A stretch of 38,107 bases of DNA, taken from the NCBI GenBank assembly GCA_043756665.1, contig JAYUQR010000045.1, forward strand, positions 1 to 38,107. Direction: 5' to 3'. Made by a program: the position numbers and the translations under genes. The stretch is from Candidatus Altimarinota bacterium. GTDB lineage: Bacteria > Patescibacteriota > Gracilibacteria > BD1-5 > UBA2023. Positions within the stretch are counted from its first letter, which is position 1, and each line of letters starts with the position of its first letter. The notes beneath the pieces are model-generated. The model ran no database searches. It had not been told where the DNA came from and worked only from the letters and a program-made list of their open reading frames with translations. Below, piece by piece: positions 29,358 to 38,107 of this stretch.

Positions 29358-30053
29358 TTAAACAACGGTTCCTCTCCTCGGTCGATTCTCTATCTCTGAC
29401 TTCTTATTGACCGCGTCATTGTATACTTGTGCATAATGCTTATACACTGTCTCTGCATTATATACCTTCCCATTCCAGAAGTCGAGCCTCGACGATATAA
29501 AAATAATCTGCTTACAGAATTCTATGCGTGACATATTCGCTTTCTCACAGATCTCTCAGAATTCTTTTCAGGAAAGTATATTTTTTGCTCGTTCCCGTTC
29601 GTATTTTCATTTCCGATAAATGAGCCCAAGGTGCTCTACTTGTCACTGTATGATTTCGAGGAGATCATTGATTTCTTCATTTCTGAATTCTTGTTGTACG
29701 ACGAGAGCTTGCTCTCATTCTTCTTTAGAAGAATTTTGATTTGAATTGACTTGGTTTGACTTGGTTTGACTTGGTTTGGTCGCACGTTTTTTTAAATCTT
29801 CTCGCCCCATAGGTCGCCCCATAGGTGCGAGATCTATTCTAAGCGGATTTCATTTTTTCGAGCTCGCTTTATTCTCAATTTGTACAGCCTCCGTCCAAAT
29901 ACTCAAAACTACCCCTCATCTCATCGATTGTTCTATGTCGATAATCTCTCCGATCGATAGCCTCATAAGAGAATCGAATACGTACGCCTTATCAGAATCG
30001 ACCATATAGGTAATCTGCATGGCGTAGTGTGTTGGGATCCGAAGTATGTCCAT
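29358..30053 (-). CDS. putative replication initiator / DNA-binding protein (231 aa) with tandem DNA repeats inside its linker-coding region
   Basis: ATG 30053, TAA 29358-29360, seven in-frame TGA. It is the first gene of the leftward module. The central low-complexity segment LAPMGRPMGREDLKKRATKPSQTKSNQVNSNQNSSKEE is encoded by the repeats at 29748..29825. The function is inferred from this architecture only. Confidence 0.65.
29748..29777. repeat. three perfect tandem 10-bp repeats (gacttggttt), iteron-like
   Basis: gacttggttt occurs at 29748, 29758 and 29768. It is preceded by degenerate tttga units, so the TTGAC cores are spaced one helical turn apart. Confidence 0.9.
29802..29825. repeat. 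two perfect tandem 12-bp repeats (tcgccccatagg)
   Basis: tcgccccatagg occurs at 29802 and 29814. An A/T-rich tract tttttttaaat (29787-29797) separates it from the 10-bp repeats. Confidence 0.9.
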
Positions 30054-31924: not shown

Positions 31925-32620
31925 ATGGAAACAAAAAATATTTCTTCTGCAATAATAGCAGTTATGCGAGAGATTAATGGAGTAGAGAAGTCTATGACTG
32001 TATGAAGTGGAAACAACTCGTATCAATGAGTGAGCGATAAAGACGTAAAGATTCTTATTCGAGATTCGATGATAAAAAATTGACTCGCTATCTTTCCCGC
32101 AGAAATAAACGCAAAAATCCAAATAGATAGATGGGAAGAAGATGATACGTATAATAAAAATCCACCATATCCAAAAAAGTCCAAGCAATCCGTTTTTACG
32201 GAGGTCACGACAAGGTATATTATTTTACACACAAGCGGGGAATCACTCGAATTAGCTGGATATGGACAGGGCGTAGATGCCCAAGATAAATGAGCAGGAA
32301 AGGCAACGACATATGCGCTAAAAAATACTCTTCTGAATATGTTTCTTATTCCTACAGGGGTAGACACTGACAATACCCACTCTGATGATATTCCAGTACC
32401 ACAAAAATCTATTGATACACCCAATGGATGAAAAAAAGAATATCCAGTCACCAAGTGGTTGAACTTCAGAGATCTCGAAAATCTCGTAAATTCATGAATC
32501 GATACAGAGGCTCTTCTTTCGAATCATATTAAAGATAATGAATTCACTCTTTCGAACAATATGAAGAAGACTCTCCGAGCCTATTGTGATAGTGGTGAAC
32601 TTTCCGAAATCCGATCATAA
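31925..32620 (+). CDS. erf: ERF-family single-strand annealing recombinase (231 aa)
   Basis: ATG 31925, TAA 32618-32620. Product METKNISSAIIAVMREINGVEKSMTVGSGNNSYQGVSDKDVKILIRDSMIKNGLAIFP...DAQDKGAGKATTYALKNTLLNMFLIPTGVDTD matches the ERF pattern as I recall it. Confidence 0.65.
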
Positions 32621-33644: not shown

Positions 33645-33926
33645 ATGCTCCACGAACTCACACCCGCTCAGTTCTCAGGTATCCTCGCTACGGACTCACA
33701 GGATAGACTCAAGAACTCTGTAGAGATACTCGCCGATCTACAAAGAGAGGCTTTCGAATATGCTATGAGAGAAGGCAAGCCTTCCGCCAATGATGAACAT
33801 GTATTCCCTTCTCGTAAGATGCAGGAAGCTCTTGCTTATGGTATCTACAGTCATGGTGCAGTAACAGACGAAGAGCATACAGAACGGCTCGCTCGAATAG
33901 CTCAGGCTCATACTTTTACTCGATAA
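33645..33926 (+). CDS. hypothetical protein (93 aa)
   Basis: Intact ORF with no TGA and a TAA stop. Product MLHELTPAQFSGILATDSQDRLKNSVEILADLQREAFEYAMREGKPSANDEHVFPSRKMQEALAYGIYSHG... Confidence 0.65.
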   Translation: MLHELTPAQFSGILATDSQDRLKNSVEILADLQREAFEYAMREGKPSANDEHVFPSRKMQEALAYGIYSHGAVTDEEHTERLARIAQAHTFTR

Positions 33927-33940
33927 TTTTATATACTTAT

Positions 33941-34234
33941 ATGAACTACTCACCGACTCAAATTAAGCTAATCCGTATATTCGGAAAGAAGGAATTGACA
34001 GATGGATGCAGAATAGAAATCCTCTGACATATCCCCGAGCTTCATGATGTGTATAGGGTAGCGAACGATATAGACTTAGCAATCCACGCTAATCTTGACT
34101 CAAAACTTGTAAGCGAATTGAAAGCATACAGAAACTCTAAGGAGTGAATAGTAAAAATCCCATACAATCCAACCCTTTCACTTTTATCCCAGACAGACGA
34201 TATAAAAGAATCAATCATTAACCTCTTCTCATAA
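33941..34234 (+). CDS. hypothetical protein (97 aa)
   Basis: ATG 33941, TAA 34232-34234. Product MNYSPTQIKLIRIFGKKELTDGCRIEILGHIPELHDVYRVANDIDLAIHANLDSKLVSELKAYRNSKEGIVKIPYN... Confidence 0.6.
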
Positions 34235-34235
34235 T

Positions 34236-34445
34236 ATGCCCCCATCACTCCCCCCTCCAAAGTCTCACGCTGAACAGATAGCAGACTCACTCTACCAAGC
34301 TCGAAGGTTCGATGACCTTCCCCAGTCTATCCAGCTCGTACGAGTGAATTGACAGGTGATGCGATGAGAGCTCTCGAATGCTGATGGCATGCGAAAGATA
34401 GTACAGATACGAGCGAGGTTCAATTGAATCATTTTAGATATTTAA
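34236..34445 (+). CDS. hypothetical protein (69 aa)
   Basis: ATG 34236, TAA 34443-34445. Product MPPSLPPPKSHAEQIADSLYQARRFDDLPQSIQLVRVNGQVMRGELSNADGMRKIVQIRARFNGIILDI. Its last ~13 codons belong to the duplicated block. Confidence 0.55.
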
Positions 34446-34518
34446 TTTTATATATATGACAATACAAGATATTAGTTCTGGTTCTGGTGATGGTTTTGGT
34501 GATGGTTCTGGTTCTGGT
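34406..34518 (+). repeat. duplicated block, copy A (upstream region plus first 21 codons of the Gly-X gene)
   Basis: The 113 nt starting gatacgagcgaggttc...tttaattttatatatATGacaatacaagatattagttct... recur at 35132..35244. The only difference is the 8-nt patch aattgaat versus gaggggat. Confidence 0.9.
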
Positions 34519-34725
34519 TCTGGTTTTGGTGATGGTTTTGGTTCTGGTTCTGGTTATGGTTCTGGTTCTGGTTCTGGTTATGGTTCTGGTTATGGTGATG
34601 GTTTTGGTGATGGTTCTGGTGATGGTTCTGGTTCTGGTTCTGGTTCTGGTTTTGGTGATGGTTCTGGTTCTGGTTATGGTTCTGGTTCTGGTTATGGTTA
34701 CAGAAATTCGGTTACTATTATTTAA
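34456..34725 (+). CDS. (Gly-X)n repeat protein, 89 aa (X = Ser/Asp/Phe/Tyr)
   Basis: Product MTIQDISS + 36 perfect G-X dipeptides + G + YRNSVTII; TAA stop. It has the same AT-rich start context as neighbouring genes. Conserved non-repeat N- and C-termini are shared with the paralog at 35182..35391. Confidence 0.65.
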   Translation: MTIQDISSGSGDGFGDGSGSGSGFGDGFGSGSGYGSGSGSGYGSGYGDGFGDGSGDGSGSGSGSGFGDGSGSGYGSGSGYGYRNSVTII

Positions 34726-34736
34726 ATTTTATATAT

Positions 34737-35129
34737 ATGGAAAGGGAAGTTATTTTGAAACTTATTGAAATGCTTATAAATTCAGACTCTATCTTTATAG
34801 ATAGATGTCATACTACTGACGATAAACAATATCCTATCTGACAGAAAATAATTCTTCGAGGTGCTGATTGTGGTAGTCTCTATGGAACACTTATTTCTGT
34901 TACCAATTGAGTCTATCGAATGAAAGACTCCAGAAGACTTTGGTACTGGAAATGCAAGAAATGATTTACCCTGGATGATGTGGCGAACTTTGGACTTAAT
35001 GAGAACTCAAAAGTAACTTCCACTGTGCCACTTTGTGATGTAACTGATAGCCGTGTATCACTTCTTATCCCCTGTTCTGATAAAGCGATTAAAAGTATAG
35101 AGTCACTTCCTGATTATCAGCCTAGTTAG
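34737..35129 (+). CDS. hypothetical protein (130 aa) between the two Gly-X genes
   Basis: ATG 34737, TAG 35127-35129, three in-frame TGA. Product MEREVILKLIEMLINSDSIFIDRCHTTDDKQYPIGQKIILRGADCGSLYGTLISVTNGVYRMKDSRRLWYWKCKKGFTLDDVANFG... Confidence 0.65.
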
Positions 35130-35131
35130 TT

Positions 35132-35244
35132 GATACGAGCGAGGTTCGAGGGGATCATTTTAGATATTTAATTTTATATATATGACAATACAAGATATTA
35201 GTTCTGGTTCTGGTGATGGTTTTGGTGATGGTTCTGGTTCTGGT
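35132..35244 (+). repeat. duplicated block, copy B
   Basis: See copy A at 34406..34518; the offset is 726 nt. A second shared block (ggttacagaaattcggttactattatttaaattttatatatatg) lies at 34696..34739 and 35362..35405. Confidence 0.9.
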
Positions 35245-35391
35245 GATGGTTTTGGTGATGGTTCTGGTTCTGGTTCTGGTTATGGTTCTGGTTCTGGTTC
35301 TGGTTATGGTTCTGGTTTTGGTGATGGTTTTGGTGATGGTTTTGGTGATGGTTCTGGTTCTGGTTACAGAAATTCGGTTACTATTATTTAA
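35182..35391 (+). CDS. (Gly-X)n repeat protein, 69 aa, paralog of 34456..34725
   Basis: Product MTIQDISS + 26 perfect G-X dipeptides + G + YRNSVTII; TAA stop. Confidence 0.65.
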   Translation: MTIQDISSGSGDGFGDGSGSGDGFGDGSGSGSGYGSGSGSGYGSGFGDGFGDGFGDGSGSGYRNSVTII

Positions 35392-35402
35392 ATTTTATAT
35401 AT

Positions 35403-35630
35403 ATGACAATCCCAAATTGAGAGATCTTCACAATCAATAATTCTGTAACATATCCAAAATATAAGATAGAGTGAGGATATATTGATATTAGAGATAGGAT
35501 TAAAAGAATGTGAGATATTTTATATCCTATCAGACTAATGACAGATGAGGAAATAAAAATCGTATTCGATTGAGCTACAATACAAGAAGCAAAAGAAATG
35601 GTAAAAGAAATACTAAAGGATTTTTTATAA
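35403..35630 (+). CDS. hypothetical protein (75 aa)
   Basis: ATG 35403, TAA 35628-35630. Product MTIPNGEIFTINNSVTYPKYKIEGGYIDIRDRIKRMGDILYPIRLMTDEEIKIVFDGATIQEAKEMVKEILKDFL. Confidence 0.55.
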
Positions 35631-35645
35631 ATAACCACTCCACCA

Positions 35646-35765
35646 ATGTCTCACTATGCTATGATCCCGATGGAAGAATACCAGGAATTTATGGAGTGGA
35701 AGAAGAGTATTCCTCCGAGTATTCGGAGAACAAAAGCAATGGAATCTGATGATCTTCCTTTTTAA
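35646..35765 (+). CDS. small ORF (39 aa)
   Basis: ATG 35646, TAA 35763-35765. Product MSHYAMIPMEEYQEFMEWKKSIPPSIRRTKAMESDDLPF. Confidence 0.4.
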   Translation: MSHYAMIPMEEYQEFMEWKKSIPPSIRRTKAMESDDLPF

Positions 35766-35897
35766 TCTTTAAATTTACTTATATGTTTTTGCATTTTCAT
35801 AAGTGGCAAGCCCGCCAATGACTAACACGCTCCAACAAGTCCGAGAACTGATAGAAAAGAAGATAGAAAAATTTATTCCTCCTTCACCATAACTACT

Positions 35898-36272
35898 ATG
35901 TACATCTTCGACCTCGATGGCACGCTTGCCGATATACGTGAGAATAGAAAACTCCCCCCATGAAAAGCAATTATTCACAATGTAGTTTTATATAGGCAAT
36001 TAGCAGAGAAATACGAGTGTATAATTGTCTCAGGGAGAGACAAAAAACAACGAAGTATGGTATTCGATTTTTTACGATGAATATTTTTTAGTGGTAGGAT
36101 AATCCTCAACGACCTCCCTTTCCCCAAGCCACCGAACCACGAATTCAAAAGAATAGTATTCCAAAATCTTCTGGATGAGTGAGAAACCATCGACTGAGTA
36201 TTTGATGACAATCCCAAGGTTGGTGATGTATGTCGAGACCTCTGAATTCCGTTTTATCTTGTTAGCCAATAA
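35898..36272 (+). CDS. HAD-superfamily phosphatase-like protein (124 aa)
   Basis: Product MYIFDLDGTLADIRENRKL... (motif I DxDGT), ...IIVSGRDKK..., ...GVFDDNPKV (acidic motif). ATG 35898, TAA 36270-36272. Confidence 0.7.
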
Positions 36273-36277
36273 TCCCT

Positions 36278-36613
36278 ATGTACCAACTCACACCACATGC
36301 CCGTGAAATCTTCAAAGTATTTGAGTGAAAGAATTGATTTAAGGTATTTGACACATCACCAGAAGGCTTTGTCCTTTGATTCTGATTGAATAAAGAAGAT
36401 GCAATAGAACGATGACTCATCGAGAAGAAAAATCCGAATCCACTTCATGAGTTATGTGAAAATAATTCTTTTATCCAGATTCCATGGATAGCGAAACATT
36501 TATGAGAAGACAAACTTGCAGAGTTTCTTGAATTCATGATCTGACAGGGGCAGAGTGAATATGGGATATTCTCAGTCGATGTGAAGAAGTTTCTAGAACG
36601 TAATTGATTATAG
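36278..36613 (+). CDS. hypothetical protein (111 aa)
   Basis: ATG 36278, TAG 36611-36613, eight in-frame TGA. Product MYQLTPHAREIFKVFEGKNGFKVFDTSPEGFVLGFGLNKEDAIERGLIEKKNPNPLHELCENNSFIQIPWIAKHLGEDKLAEFLEFMIGQ... Confidence 0.6.
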
Positions 36614-37353: not shown

Positions 37354-37569
37354 ATGTACAAAAAATACCTCATCACATACAAGCCTGAAAAGCATTTGCA
37401 GTATAACTCTTTTACAATCTGTATCGAGTGAAAAGATGTGAAAGAGATTGAAGAGAAAAAGAAAATTGCTCTTCATAATTTTAAGACATACCCGATCGAA
37501 GCGAAAAGCTGGAAATGAGAAGAACTCTACTGATTCTGAATTGTTCCTATTTCTATAAATTTAACATAA
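37354..37569 (+). CDS. hypothetical protein (71 aa)
   Basis: ATG 37354; TAA 37567-37569 overlaps the next ATG (TAATG). Product MYKKYLITYKPEKHLQYNSFTICIEGKDVKEIEEKKKIALHNFKTYPIEAKSWKGEELYGFGIVPISINLT. Confidence 0.5.
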
Positions 37570-38107
37570 TGCAAATCCCAACTATAGATACTCTAGTTAA
37601 TGTCGAAAATCGACCTACTAAAAAACTCCGTACAGAATTATATAATGATCATTTCCAAAACTTCAAAAGGTATAATATACCGAAAGCACAGCTTATCATT
37701 GCGGATATTCCATATAATCTAGGAAATAACGCATACGCTAGTAGTCCGCAATGGTATAATGAGTGAGATAATGAAAAAGGGGAAAGTAAACTAGCAAACA
37801 AGTCATTTTTTGATACAGATAATGATTTTAGAATTGCGGAATTTTTTCATTTTTGTGCTCGTTTACTAAAACCTGAGCCAAAAGAAAAGGGAATGGCACC
37901 TGCGATGATTATTTTTTGCGCATTTGAACAAATGGCAATGGTGGTAGAATTTGGAAAAAAGCATGGTTTTGAAAATTCATACCCATTATTTTTTATTAAA
38001 AATTTCTCCTGACAAGTTCTAAAAGCAAATATGAAGATAGTATGAGCCACAGAACATGCAGTAGTATTATACAGAGATAAGCTCCCAAAGTTTAATAATG
38101 GGAAAAA
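37569..38107 (+). CDS. DNA methyltransferase, 5' portion (motif IV DIPY); continues at 1..315
   Basis: ATG 37569; the frame is open to the window end with three in-frame TGA (37765-37767, 38010-38012, 38043-38045). Product MQIPTIDTLVNVENRPTKKLRTELYNDHFQNFKRYNIPKAQLIIADIPYNLGNNAYASSPQWYNEGDNEKG... The AdoMet-binding half is missing here and is found at the window start. Confidence 0.85.

Follow-up and report, generated by a model that had tools for sequence, protein, structure and literature searches.

Strictly alternating Gly-X proteins are encoded next to the predicted Sm-like protein DUF6948 in phages of many bacterial groups

The contig JAYUQR010000045.1 (38,107 nucleotides; assembly GCA_043756665.1, Candidatus Altimarinota bacterium), of which the whole stretch is called the window here, contains two genes, GX1 and GX2, for small proteins which consist almost entirely of uninterrupted Gly-X dipeptides. 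The gene between them codes for a DUF6948 protein. We report that a (Gly-X)n array and DUF6948 constitute a widespread two-gene module that is present in phages of many bacterial groups and is undescribed in the searchable literature. GX1 and GX2 are very probably real proteins, functional partners of DUF6948 and products of a recent duplication. The three genes are:

34456..34725, plus strand: GX1, an 89-amino-acid (aa) stand-alone (Gly-X)37 protein
34737..35129, plus strand: DUF6948 protein, 130 aa, with an N-terminal helix and a predicted Sm/LSm-like beta-barrel
35182..35391, plus strand: GX2, a 69-aa stand-alone (Gly-X)27 protein

Results

Gly-X arrays are paired with DUF6948 across phages

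Every DUF6948 locus that was examined (62/62) had an open reading frame (ORF) of the (Gly-X)n type, or a degenerate Gly-rich version of it, directly adjoining the DUF6948 gene on the same strand. A run of at least five G-X dipeptides was within 450 nt and on the same strand at 59 loci. The remaining three were inspected: one array overlapped an over-extended gene call and two were degenerate Gly-rich versions. The loci came from candidate phyla radiation (CPR)-type recoded, Bacteroidota-type and high-GC contigs as well as from cultured phages of Ralstonia, Pectobacterium and Iodobacter. Away from any DUF6948 gene only three runs of at least five G-X dipeptides were encountered in all six frames of 579 kb of related phage DNA; therefore, long G-X runs are not a product of chance.

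The pairing was reached from both partners. With DUF6948 as a query in IMG/VR, 41 related loci were retrieved at 31-42% identity, and in a six-frame scan a (Gly-X)n run directly followed DUF6948 in almost every one. When GTDB genomes were scanned with a DUF6948 profile, seven contigs with the same arrangement came up, in bins which included Bacteroidales, Saccharibacteria, Bacilli and Nitrospirota. A word-indexed search with GX2 in a collection of 5.8 billion proteins yielded six weak matches, which shared only the repeat and none the termini. P0002 and P0006, which were found by GX similarity only, were both located immediately downstream of DUF6948 on high-GC contigs. Three cultured phages in GenBank were inspected and each had a stand-alone GX ORF right after DUF6948:

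Ralstonia phage NK-7: 137 aa, XCO36015.1 (gene pair XCO36016/XCO36015), annotated as 'fibroin heavy chain-like protein'
Pectobacterium phage Ymer (gene pair WCD42788/WCD42787): 73 aa, annotated as hypothetical
Iodobacter phage PhiPLPE (locus L065): about 1176-1409, unannotated

The GX and DUF6948 genes frequently overlap by 4-13 nt and therefore the pair is probably co-translated. Among the neighbours were genes for ERF, Sak, RecT, RecE, SSB, a DUF3799 nuclease, Lar-like and LexA-like proteins. As far as gene content tells, the pair resides in an early recombination/replication gene cluster.

The arrays of GX1 and GX2

Both proteins have the layout MTIQDISS-(G-X)n-RNSVTII. The original prediction, made from the letters of this DNA, had described two perfect (Gly-X)n ORFs which begin with MTIQDISS and end with YRNSVTII, and exactly these were found at the positions given. 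Its numbers of 36 and 26 dipeptides hold if the final G-Y is assigned to the terminus; with this dipeptide included the uninterrupted runs are 37 and 27. The composition was likewise as described: basic and aliphatic residues are absent from the arrays, X is exclusively Ser, Asp, Phe or Tyr (S19/D7/Y6/F5 in GX1, S12/D7/F5/Y3 in GX2), and the proteins are acidic (for each, pI 4.05 and net charge about -7.5). Asp occupies 7 of 37 X positions in GX1 and 7 of 27 in GX2, i.e. about 20%. The motif G[Y/F]G occurs ten times in the 89 residues of GX1 and seven times in the 69 of GX2, one per 9-10 residues.

At the DNA level Tandem Repeats Finder reported a period of 6 with 37.5 and 27.5 copies for GX1 and GX2, respectively. 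All array Gly codons are GGT (64/64), and the X codons are only TCT, GAT, TTT and TAT; more than one frame runs through the repeat without a stop. In nine large genes of the window genome, in which TGA is read as Gly (see below), the Gly codons are TGA 185, GGA 180, GGT 58, GGG 35 and GGC 30; GGT thus amounts to 58 of 488 (~12%). TGA, the commonest Gly codon of the large genes, is absent from both GX genes.

A collagen-like (G-X-Y)n repeat was ruled out because Gly is at every second residue and the DNA period is 6 nt. This bears out the earlier view that the arrays are neither collagen-like nor an ordinary linker. RTX repeats (nonapeptide GGXGXDXUX) were ruled out as well: the period is 2 aa, GG pairs are absent and there is no hydrophobic position. 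Searches of Pfam, PHROGs, NCBIfam and PADLOC with the GX proteins returned only sub-threshold low-complexity noise, e.g. TrAA12 and phrog_10432, and the GX part was without a match in the PDB or the literature. The earlier statement that no function has been described for such a protein thus holds for all these sources. The region 33900-36300 had no blastn match among GenBank phages, the exact DNA of the 3' tail had zero matches in IMG/VR, and scans of the cassette for tRNAs, Rfam families, promoters and terminators gave nothing above chance.

The array is kept as protein in close relatives

Close homologues of the window DUF6948 are 58-72% identical and have the same N-terminal helix. Their contigs are low in GC (0.31-0.41) and have TGA where homologues have Gly or Trp; the close relatives appear to be TGA-recoded, too. 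Twelve of these contigs (L042-L053) each carry a single stand-alone GX gene directly upstream of DUF6948, and this GX gene is directly preceded by a gene for an ERF or Sak annealing protein. The proteins take the forms MTTKN-(GX)n-YKNSVSII, MTTQT-(GX)n-YKNSVTII, MSN-(GX)n-YKKSVSII, MSENT-(GX)n-STVTII and ...(GX)n-YKKSISIISQ. Conserved among the twelve are the tails YKNSVSII, YKNSVTII and YKKSVSII.

The codons of the arrays differ among lineages:

Window: GGT with TCT, GAT, TTT, TAT
L042-46: GGC (and GGA) with TCT, GAT, TAT
L049-51: GGT
L052-53: GGA
L047: GGC with TAC, AAC, GAC
L037: GGC with TCC, GAC, TAC

Frameshifts or stops in the G-X frame were found in none of the relatives. It had been set out beforehand that frameshifts or stops in this frame, together with conservation at the DNA level, would point to a DNA element. 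The outcome was the opposite: the G-X frame and the termini were kept while the codons differed, as expected of real protein-coding paralogues. In 75 distinct arrays (1,201 dipeptides) X was Ser in 34%, Tyr in 28.5%, Asp in 21.6%, Asn in 4.4% and Phe in 3%; Ser, Tyr and Asp together make up about 85% of X across the array class. Thr, Pro and Ala are a single base change away from TCT, yet in these arrays Thr accounted for 0.2% and Ala for 1.2%, and Pro was not seen. Because alternation, X palette and termini are kept while synonymous codons differ, the comparison points to selection on the protein and not on a DNA element.

The repeat number, which was to be compared between related genomes, differs by 66- or 84-nt indels between near-identical contigs. 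In 807 aligned columns, one in-frame array indel of 66 nt is all that separates L042 from L043; L049 and L050 are distinguished by one array indel of 84 nt, with 0 mismatches. Among proteins with 94-96% identical C-terminal domains (C-domains, see below) the arrays range from a few to about 25-30 dipeptides. Every indel seen was a multiple of 6 nt. Taken together, the alignments indicate a very fast turnover of the arrays by gain and loss of entire 6-nt units, the pattern expected from replication slippage or unequal exchange. Either process, acting on hexamer units, accounts for the codon uniformity inside an array.

GX2 is a recent duplicate

The cassettes 34406-34739 and 35132-35405 align with one gap of 60 nt, five substitutions in the array and a 6-nt patch with four mismatches. 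The remaining flanking bases are identical, the 3' block included. Each cassette begins with a 50-nt block, and the copies are bordered by two small ORFs:

34236..34445, plus strand: 69-aa ORF of unknown function, from the list of ORFs with TGA as sense; no Pfam match; C-terminus ...IRARFNGIILDI, then stop
34406..34455, plus strand: upstream block copy 1, 50 nt, with the quasi-palindrome GGTTCAATTGAATC and an A+T-rich leader, no Shine-Dalgarno sequence
35132..35181, plus strand: upstream block copy 2, 50 nt, starting 2 nt past the TAG stop of DUF6948 and in frame with DUF6948
35403..35630, plus strand: 75-aa ORF after GX2, with a AATTTTATATATATG leader and an MTI start; no match in Pfam or PHROGs

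The original prediction had both flanking blocks the same in the two copies. This was correct for the 3' block; the upstream block contains the 6-nt patch with its four mismatches. In addition, the gene between the copies, which had been called unrelated, turned out to be DUF6948, the conserved partner of Gly-X arrays.

Because the relatives have their one GX gene directly upstream of DUF6948, GX1 is by position the orthologue of the only GX gene that related TGA=Gly phages have. A second GX copy was present in none of the twelve related contigs L042-L053, and the recent duplication that had been proposed can be specified as lineage-specific. Judged from these comparisons, GX2 is a recent duplicate which was seen in the window only and carried 50 nt of upstream sequence along. 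In copy 1 these 50 nt overlap the end of ORF 34236..34445, the final ~40 nt of which are the first part of the block. AATTTTATATATATG is present four times in the window (0.41 expected), before each GX gene and before each gene that follows one.

The patch (AATTGA at 34422-34427, GAGGGG at 35148-35153) is the sole difference between the upstream blocks. In copy 1 it encodes Asn-Gly, with TGA for Gly, near the end of ORF 34236..34445. In copy 2 the frame runs straight on from the TAG stop of DUF6948, i.e. ...DYQPS, stop, LIRARFEGIILDI, stop (35127-35171). Under code 25 an exchange of TGA for GGG thus leaves Gly unchanged. It could be due to chance, to a read-through extension or to templating by the quasi-palindrome (TTCAATTGAA). 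The peptide LIRARFEGIILDI was not found in relatives.

An insertion of GX2 in front of a conserved neighbour was considered and rejected: the alignment score of ORF 35403..35630 with the ORFs after DUF6948 in relatives was within the range of shuffled sequences, i.e. no homology was detected. On this evidence the ORF is outside the conserved module. It starts with MTIPNG... and contains ...INNSVTYP (35403-35456), which resemble the GX termini MTIQDISS (34456-34479) and YRNSVTII (34702-34725). This resemblance may be a trace of cassette origin or may be chance.

DUF6948 has a predicted Sm-like fold

ORF 34737..35129 matched Pfam PF22253 (DUF6948) with 46.9 bits at a cut-off of 27 (E = 3.1e-12), and the model was matched by all 28 aligned homologues. 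The domain comprises ~95 aa and the family 2,374 clusters at 50% identity. We found no mention of DUF6948 or PF22253 in the searchable literature. A structure was modelled by AlphaFold2 from a 28-sequence alignment on P0138, a homologue 62% identical to the window DUF6948. The model had a pLDDT of 79.6 and consisted of an N-terminal helix, a disordered link and a beta-barrel. In a Foldseek search of the PDB the top 50 matches were all Sm/LSm proteins or subunits of larger complexes with an Sm/LSm fold. They included archaeal SmAP1 (1i8f; target TM-score 0.74, root-mean-square deviation 2.4 Å, probability 1.0, E about 2e-3), followed by LSm1-7, LSm2-8, SmD3/B and the LSm14 domain. Among viral models, DUF6948 proteins, a 'Sm-like domain containing protein' and a Gordonia phage 'RNA binding protein' were retrieved. 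DUF6948 is thus predicted to adopt an Sm/LSm-like fold, a strongly bent five-stranded beta-barrel.

Some DUF6948 genes (P0132, P0140, P0213) have been extended upstream by gene callers via a shifted array frame, and their annotated N-termini, e.g. MDLAMAMAMA or MALAMAGARALAMAMA, are spurious. In P0259 two DUF6948 domains follow each other in tandem.

Forms of the array protein

In Bacteroidota-like gut phages the array is the middle part of a protein of 190-250 aa, which begins with an N-terminal helix (MExLExKIKxFL) and ends with a conserved C-domain of ~150 aa with invariant Cys and His. The invariant positions are C, H, LTGSC and GR (L001-L041, L056, L059-L061; e.g. L019 6273-6869). Most phages have the array in such a form, towards the N-terminus of a protein of about 190-250 aa, and not as a free peptide. 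More than 6,000 array plus C-domain proteins exist at 90% identity, all of them unnamed or 'hypothetical' and none with a Pfam domain. The C-domain had no match in Pfam or PHROGs, a PDB profile search and Foldseek were not significant, and its AlphaFold2 model was poor (pLDDT 51). It is missing from the window: with code 25, an HMM search without filters found it in none of the six frames. Stand-alone arrays like those of the window are present in L003, L057 and L062 and in the three cultured phages.

Two fusions were encountered. P0303 is one 199-aa ORF, verified on its contig, with a GX-type array followed by DUF6948; in P0204, DUF6948 is followed by the C-domain in one protein. They are rare homologues that tie the array or the C-domain to DUF6948. 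At L064 (160-1809) a DUF6948-C-domain fusion of 368 aa is followed by a second DUF6948 gene.

Genetic code and gene setting of the window

With the standard bacterial code, ORFs of at least 100 codons spanned just 47% of the window length. With TGA as sense, the six-frame total of such ORFs was 1.98 times the window length and the longest had 1368 codons. TGA is located at expected Gly sites in the methyltransferase motifs DFTA-x-SGTT and DPVA-x-S-x-TT and in the terminase motif DL-xx-AG-xx-DETA. Therefore, by its codon usage the window is a phage which uses code 25 (TGA = Gly). Code 25 is known for Gracilibacteria and Absconditabacteria. The G+C content is 38%. Structural genes occupy the minus strand, and the plus strand has an early block, which includes:

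31925..32620, plus strand: ERF-family single-strand annealing protein (SSAP; Pfam PF04404 ERF, E = 5.8e-10)
35898..36272, early block: HAD/PNKP-type phosphatase

Methyltransferase genes are also in this block. The ERF gene marks the early recombination module that houses the GX and DUF6948 genes. The early-gene setting suggested initially is borne out by the ERF recombinase, methyltransferases and HAD phosphatase nearby. By eye, no obvious Shine-Dalgarno motif preceded any of the 47 listed genes of the window, the starts being preceded by A+T-rich sequence. In this respect the GX genes have a leader that is usual in the window genome.

A DNA methyltransferase gene is split over the window ends (37569-38107 and 1-315) at a poly-A run, with the N-terminal DIPYN part at the 3' end and the HPTQKP...DPVAGSGTT part at the 5' end. 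Therefore the window probably represents an entire genome, circular or permuted, in which the length of the homopolymer is uncertain by one base. A 10-nt unit, TTTGACTTGG, is repeated 4.4 times at 29735-29778 inside the minus-strand ORF 29358..30053 (231 aa, no Pfam match). This iteron-like repeat may be a replication origin.

Discussion

Comparison with known systems

The GX part and the C-domain that usually accompanies it match no curated family, and DUF6948 is a bare domain of unknown function. On sequence grounds GX1 and GX2 are low-complexity, acidic, predicted disordered and fast-evolving proteins of an undescribed phage class with a hypervariable Gly-X array. The module is outside the known kinds; Hfq and LSm tails, FUS-type domains and silk are functional or compositional analogies only.

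Crystalline repeats of silk fibroin heavy chain are GAGAGS/GAGAGY. Uninterrupted Gly-X alternation with Ser and Tyr among X is common to both, whereas the GX arrays have no Ala and ~20% Asp, are part of proteins of 69-137 aa instead of thousands, and are products of an intracellular early phage gene. A fibroin-type repeat was also discarded for the window proteins themselves, in which X is S/D/F/Y without Ala, the length is 69-89 aa and a hydrophobic N-terminus is lacking. The resemblance is compositional and not a sign of homology. Plant class III/V glycine-rich proteins carry (GXGX)n repeats of the same formal pattern; they are eukaryotic secreted or cell-wall proteins with other X residues and no evolutionary link. 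FUS-type low-complexity domains carry [G/S]Y[G/S] motifs. They share with GX aromatics flanked by Gly or Ser at a density of similar order and an almost complete lack of aliphatic and basic residues. In contrast, GX is strictly of period 2, rich in Asp (7 per array), devoid of Gln and Pro, much shorter, and viral/prokaryotic.

SmB, D1 and D3 carry RG-rich tails. In eukaryotic Sm/LSm proteins a ring-forming Sm fold is combined with a low-complexity tail that makes multivalent contacts and brings about higher-order assembly; a comparable combination is proposed here. The eukaryotic tails are Q/N- or RG-rich and in cis (Lsm4; PMC2064791), whereas here the array is of acidic Gly-Ser-Tyr-Asp composition. 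Also close in design is Hfq of A. baumannii, an Sm-type core with a long, disordered, Gly/aromatic-rich repeat region of variable length that bears acidic residues, and in which the repeat number matters for function (PMC11617691). P0303 joins an array and an Sm-like domain in one chain in a similar manner. There are also differences. As a rule the GX array has a gene of its own or shares a protein with some other domain, and only in P0303 is it in cis; the unit is a strict Gly-X dipeptide (S/Y/D) and not GGFGGQ; DUF6948 is without a sequence match to Hfq/LSM models; and the setting is a phage recombination module. An Hfq-like glycine-rich C-terminal domain in cis was not found, the array being a separate gene in the window and in nearly all loci.

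A disordered tail for an Sm-like protein and its alternatives

The explanation which we favor overall, and to which we give an even chance, is an acidic-aromatic disordered tail for an Sm-like protein in an early recombination module. The mechanism by which such a tail would act in trans is more tentative and, in our judgement, somewhat less probable. The GX protein would be a detachable disordered tail supplied in trans to the Sm-like protein, and DUF6948 would probably form a ring. The spaced aromatics and the Asp carboxylates would then provide many weak multivalent contacts and negative charge. The outcome might be clustering of Sm-like particles with their single-stranded nucleic-acid cargo or, alternatively, competition with nucleic acid on a basic surface of the ring. 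Array length would tune valency. Selection preserves the reading frame of the arrays, their alternation of Gly and X, the choice of X from S/Y/D(F,N) and the short ends. In Acinetobacter Hfq the GGFGGQ repeats and an acidic tip are required for RNA regulation and autoregulation (PMC11617691), and the Q/N-rich tail of Lsm4 drives P-body assembly (PMC2064791). Clustering or competition of this kind is what the glycine-rich, acidic C-terminal domain of Hfq and the Lsm4 tail bring about in cis. More speculative, and rather unlikely as it stands, is a dedicated two-part machine in phages of many bacterial phyla, in which an Sm-like ring and a length-variable Gly-X(Ser/Tyr/Asp) partner serve as condensate nucleator or single-stranded nucleic-acid mimic. 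Such a condensate would be a compartment for recombination/replication or RNA handling, a viral prokaryotic counterpart of LSm/FUS-type sticker-spacer assembly with a valency tuned by microsatellite-like slippage.

Several points weigh against the tail explanation. Adjacency and two rare fusions support a functional link but no particular mechanism. The Sm assignment rests on one predicted model with a modest Foldseek E-value (about 2e-3), and with E-values of up to 10 admitted, the LSM and Hfq models of Pfam were still matched by none of the 28 aligned DUF6948 members; the link to Sm proteins is therefore at the level of the fold only. The C-domain that usually follows the array is absent here, so the stand-alone form may act differently. 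Finally, the codon uniformity inside the arrays and the several open frames are equally expected of a repeat at the DNA level. That the hexanucleotide arrays are DNA or RNA elements (a microsatellite, recombination hot spot, G-rich structure or iteron) with incidental ORFs would also agree with the very fast unit indels and with GG at every 6 nt. Yet the units differ by lineage (GGTTCT, GGCTCT, GGATCT, GGCTAC...) while Gly-X, palette and termini are kept, all indels seen are multiples of 6, and the array is in frame within conserved 190-250 aa proteins of thousands of phages. Rfam gave no match, and promoter and terminator signals were not above chance. We consider an explanation by DNA or RNA elements very improbable.

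Of those alternatives in which the protein is the functional entity, the one taken most seriously, though unlikely, is that the GX proteins are anti-defence or host-takeover decoys which imitate single-stranded nucleic acid, with DUF6948 as chaperone or co-factor. Asp and Ser at every second residue would be spaced ~7 Å apart like phosphates, and Tyr and Phe would stand for bases. The target might be a host nuclease, SSB, a RecBCD-like enzyme or a defence sensor, and hypervariability would reflect an arms race. This would agree with the net charge of about -7.5 and pI of 4.05, with the extreme variation of array length among near-identical phages and with an early location next to SSAP genes, the place at which lambda and P22 encode functions of the Gam, Abc and Ral type. 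Methyltransferases are present in the window, and next to a fused homologue Pfam gave a faint match to a Lar-like gene for restriction alleviation. However, similarity to a known DNA mimic or anti-defence protein and any link through PADLOC or Pfam were absent, the geometry of phosphate spacing is conjecture, and the constant pairing and occasional fusion with an Sm-like protein point to a partner inside the phage and not to a host target.

Less probable again is self-assembly into fibres or gels of silk- or amyloid-like beta-sheets, one face of which would be Gly and the other X, as a scaffold or a toxic Kil-like factor which DUF6948 would keep in check. Strict G-X alternation is a property of the crystalline blocks of silk fibroin, and the NK-7 homologue even bears a fibroin label in GenBank. 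On the other hand, about 20% Asp at X and a charge of about -7.5 disfavor tight sheet packing, Ala is missing at X, the genes are in an early module apart from the virion genes, and by inspection the N-termini of the window and relatives are short and polar without a sign of export. A precursor of a modified or secreted Gly-rich peptide, akin to a microcin or bacteriocin, would fit the small size and a Gly/Ser richness that recalls precursors of the microcin B17 type. This we regard as highly improbable since the proteins are acidic, the window copies have no Cys, and most phages have the array inside a longer protein. Moreover, no modification enzyme, protease or exporter is among the annotated neighbours in the window or relatives. 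For the same reason a precursor of a ribosomally synthesized and post-translationally modified peptide or microcin was rejected for the window, where the neighbours are ERF, DUF6948, the HAD phosphatase and small ORFs of unknown function. A surface or matrix component and a peptide precursor, both among the candidates of the original prediction, are thus unlikely given the gene context. The least probable of all, to the point of being negligible, is a variable region of a diversity-generating retroelement or of another targeted hypermutation. Its attraction is that only the first two bases of alternate codons vary and the third is always T (A-free Gly codons plus NNT). But only 4 of the 16 NNT codons are used and AAT is absent, the window contains no third, template-like array, and the copies differ mainly by unit indels. 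A retroelement variable region was excluded on these codon and template grounds; in addition, no reverse transcriptase was among the annotated ORFs, which were not scanned exhaustively.

Implications

No description of the GX/DUF6948 pairing was found in the searchable literature. Should the pairing be functional, then an early module that is common among phages has so far gone undescribed. For annotation it matters that low-complexity masking can easily hide such ORFs or that they are not called at all, as happened in PhiPLPE, and that shifted array frames yield spurious 'AMAMA...' N-terminal extensions on the neighbouring gene (P0132, P0213). The cultured carriers Ymer, NK-7 and PhiPLPE make the question of a phage condensate or nucleic-acid mimic directly testable. 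A functional pairing would also connect the Sm-like fold, which is best known from RNA chaperones and spliceosomal cores, with phage recombination and replication. The GX protein would then be a natural, strictly alternating Gly-X sticker-spacer protein the length of which changes within populations.

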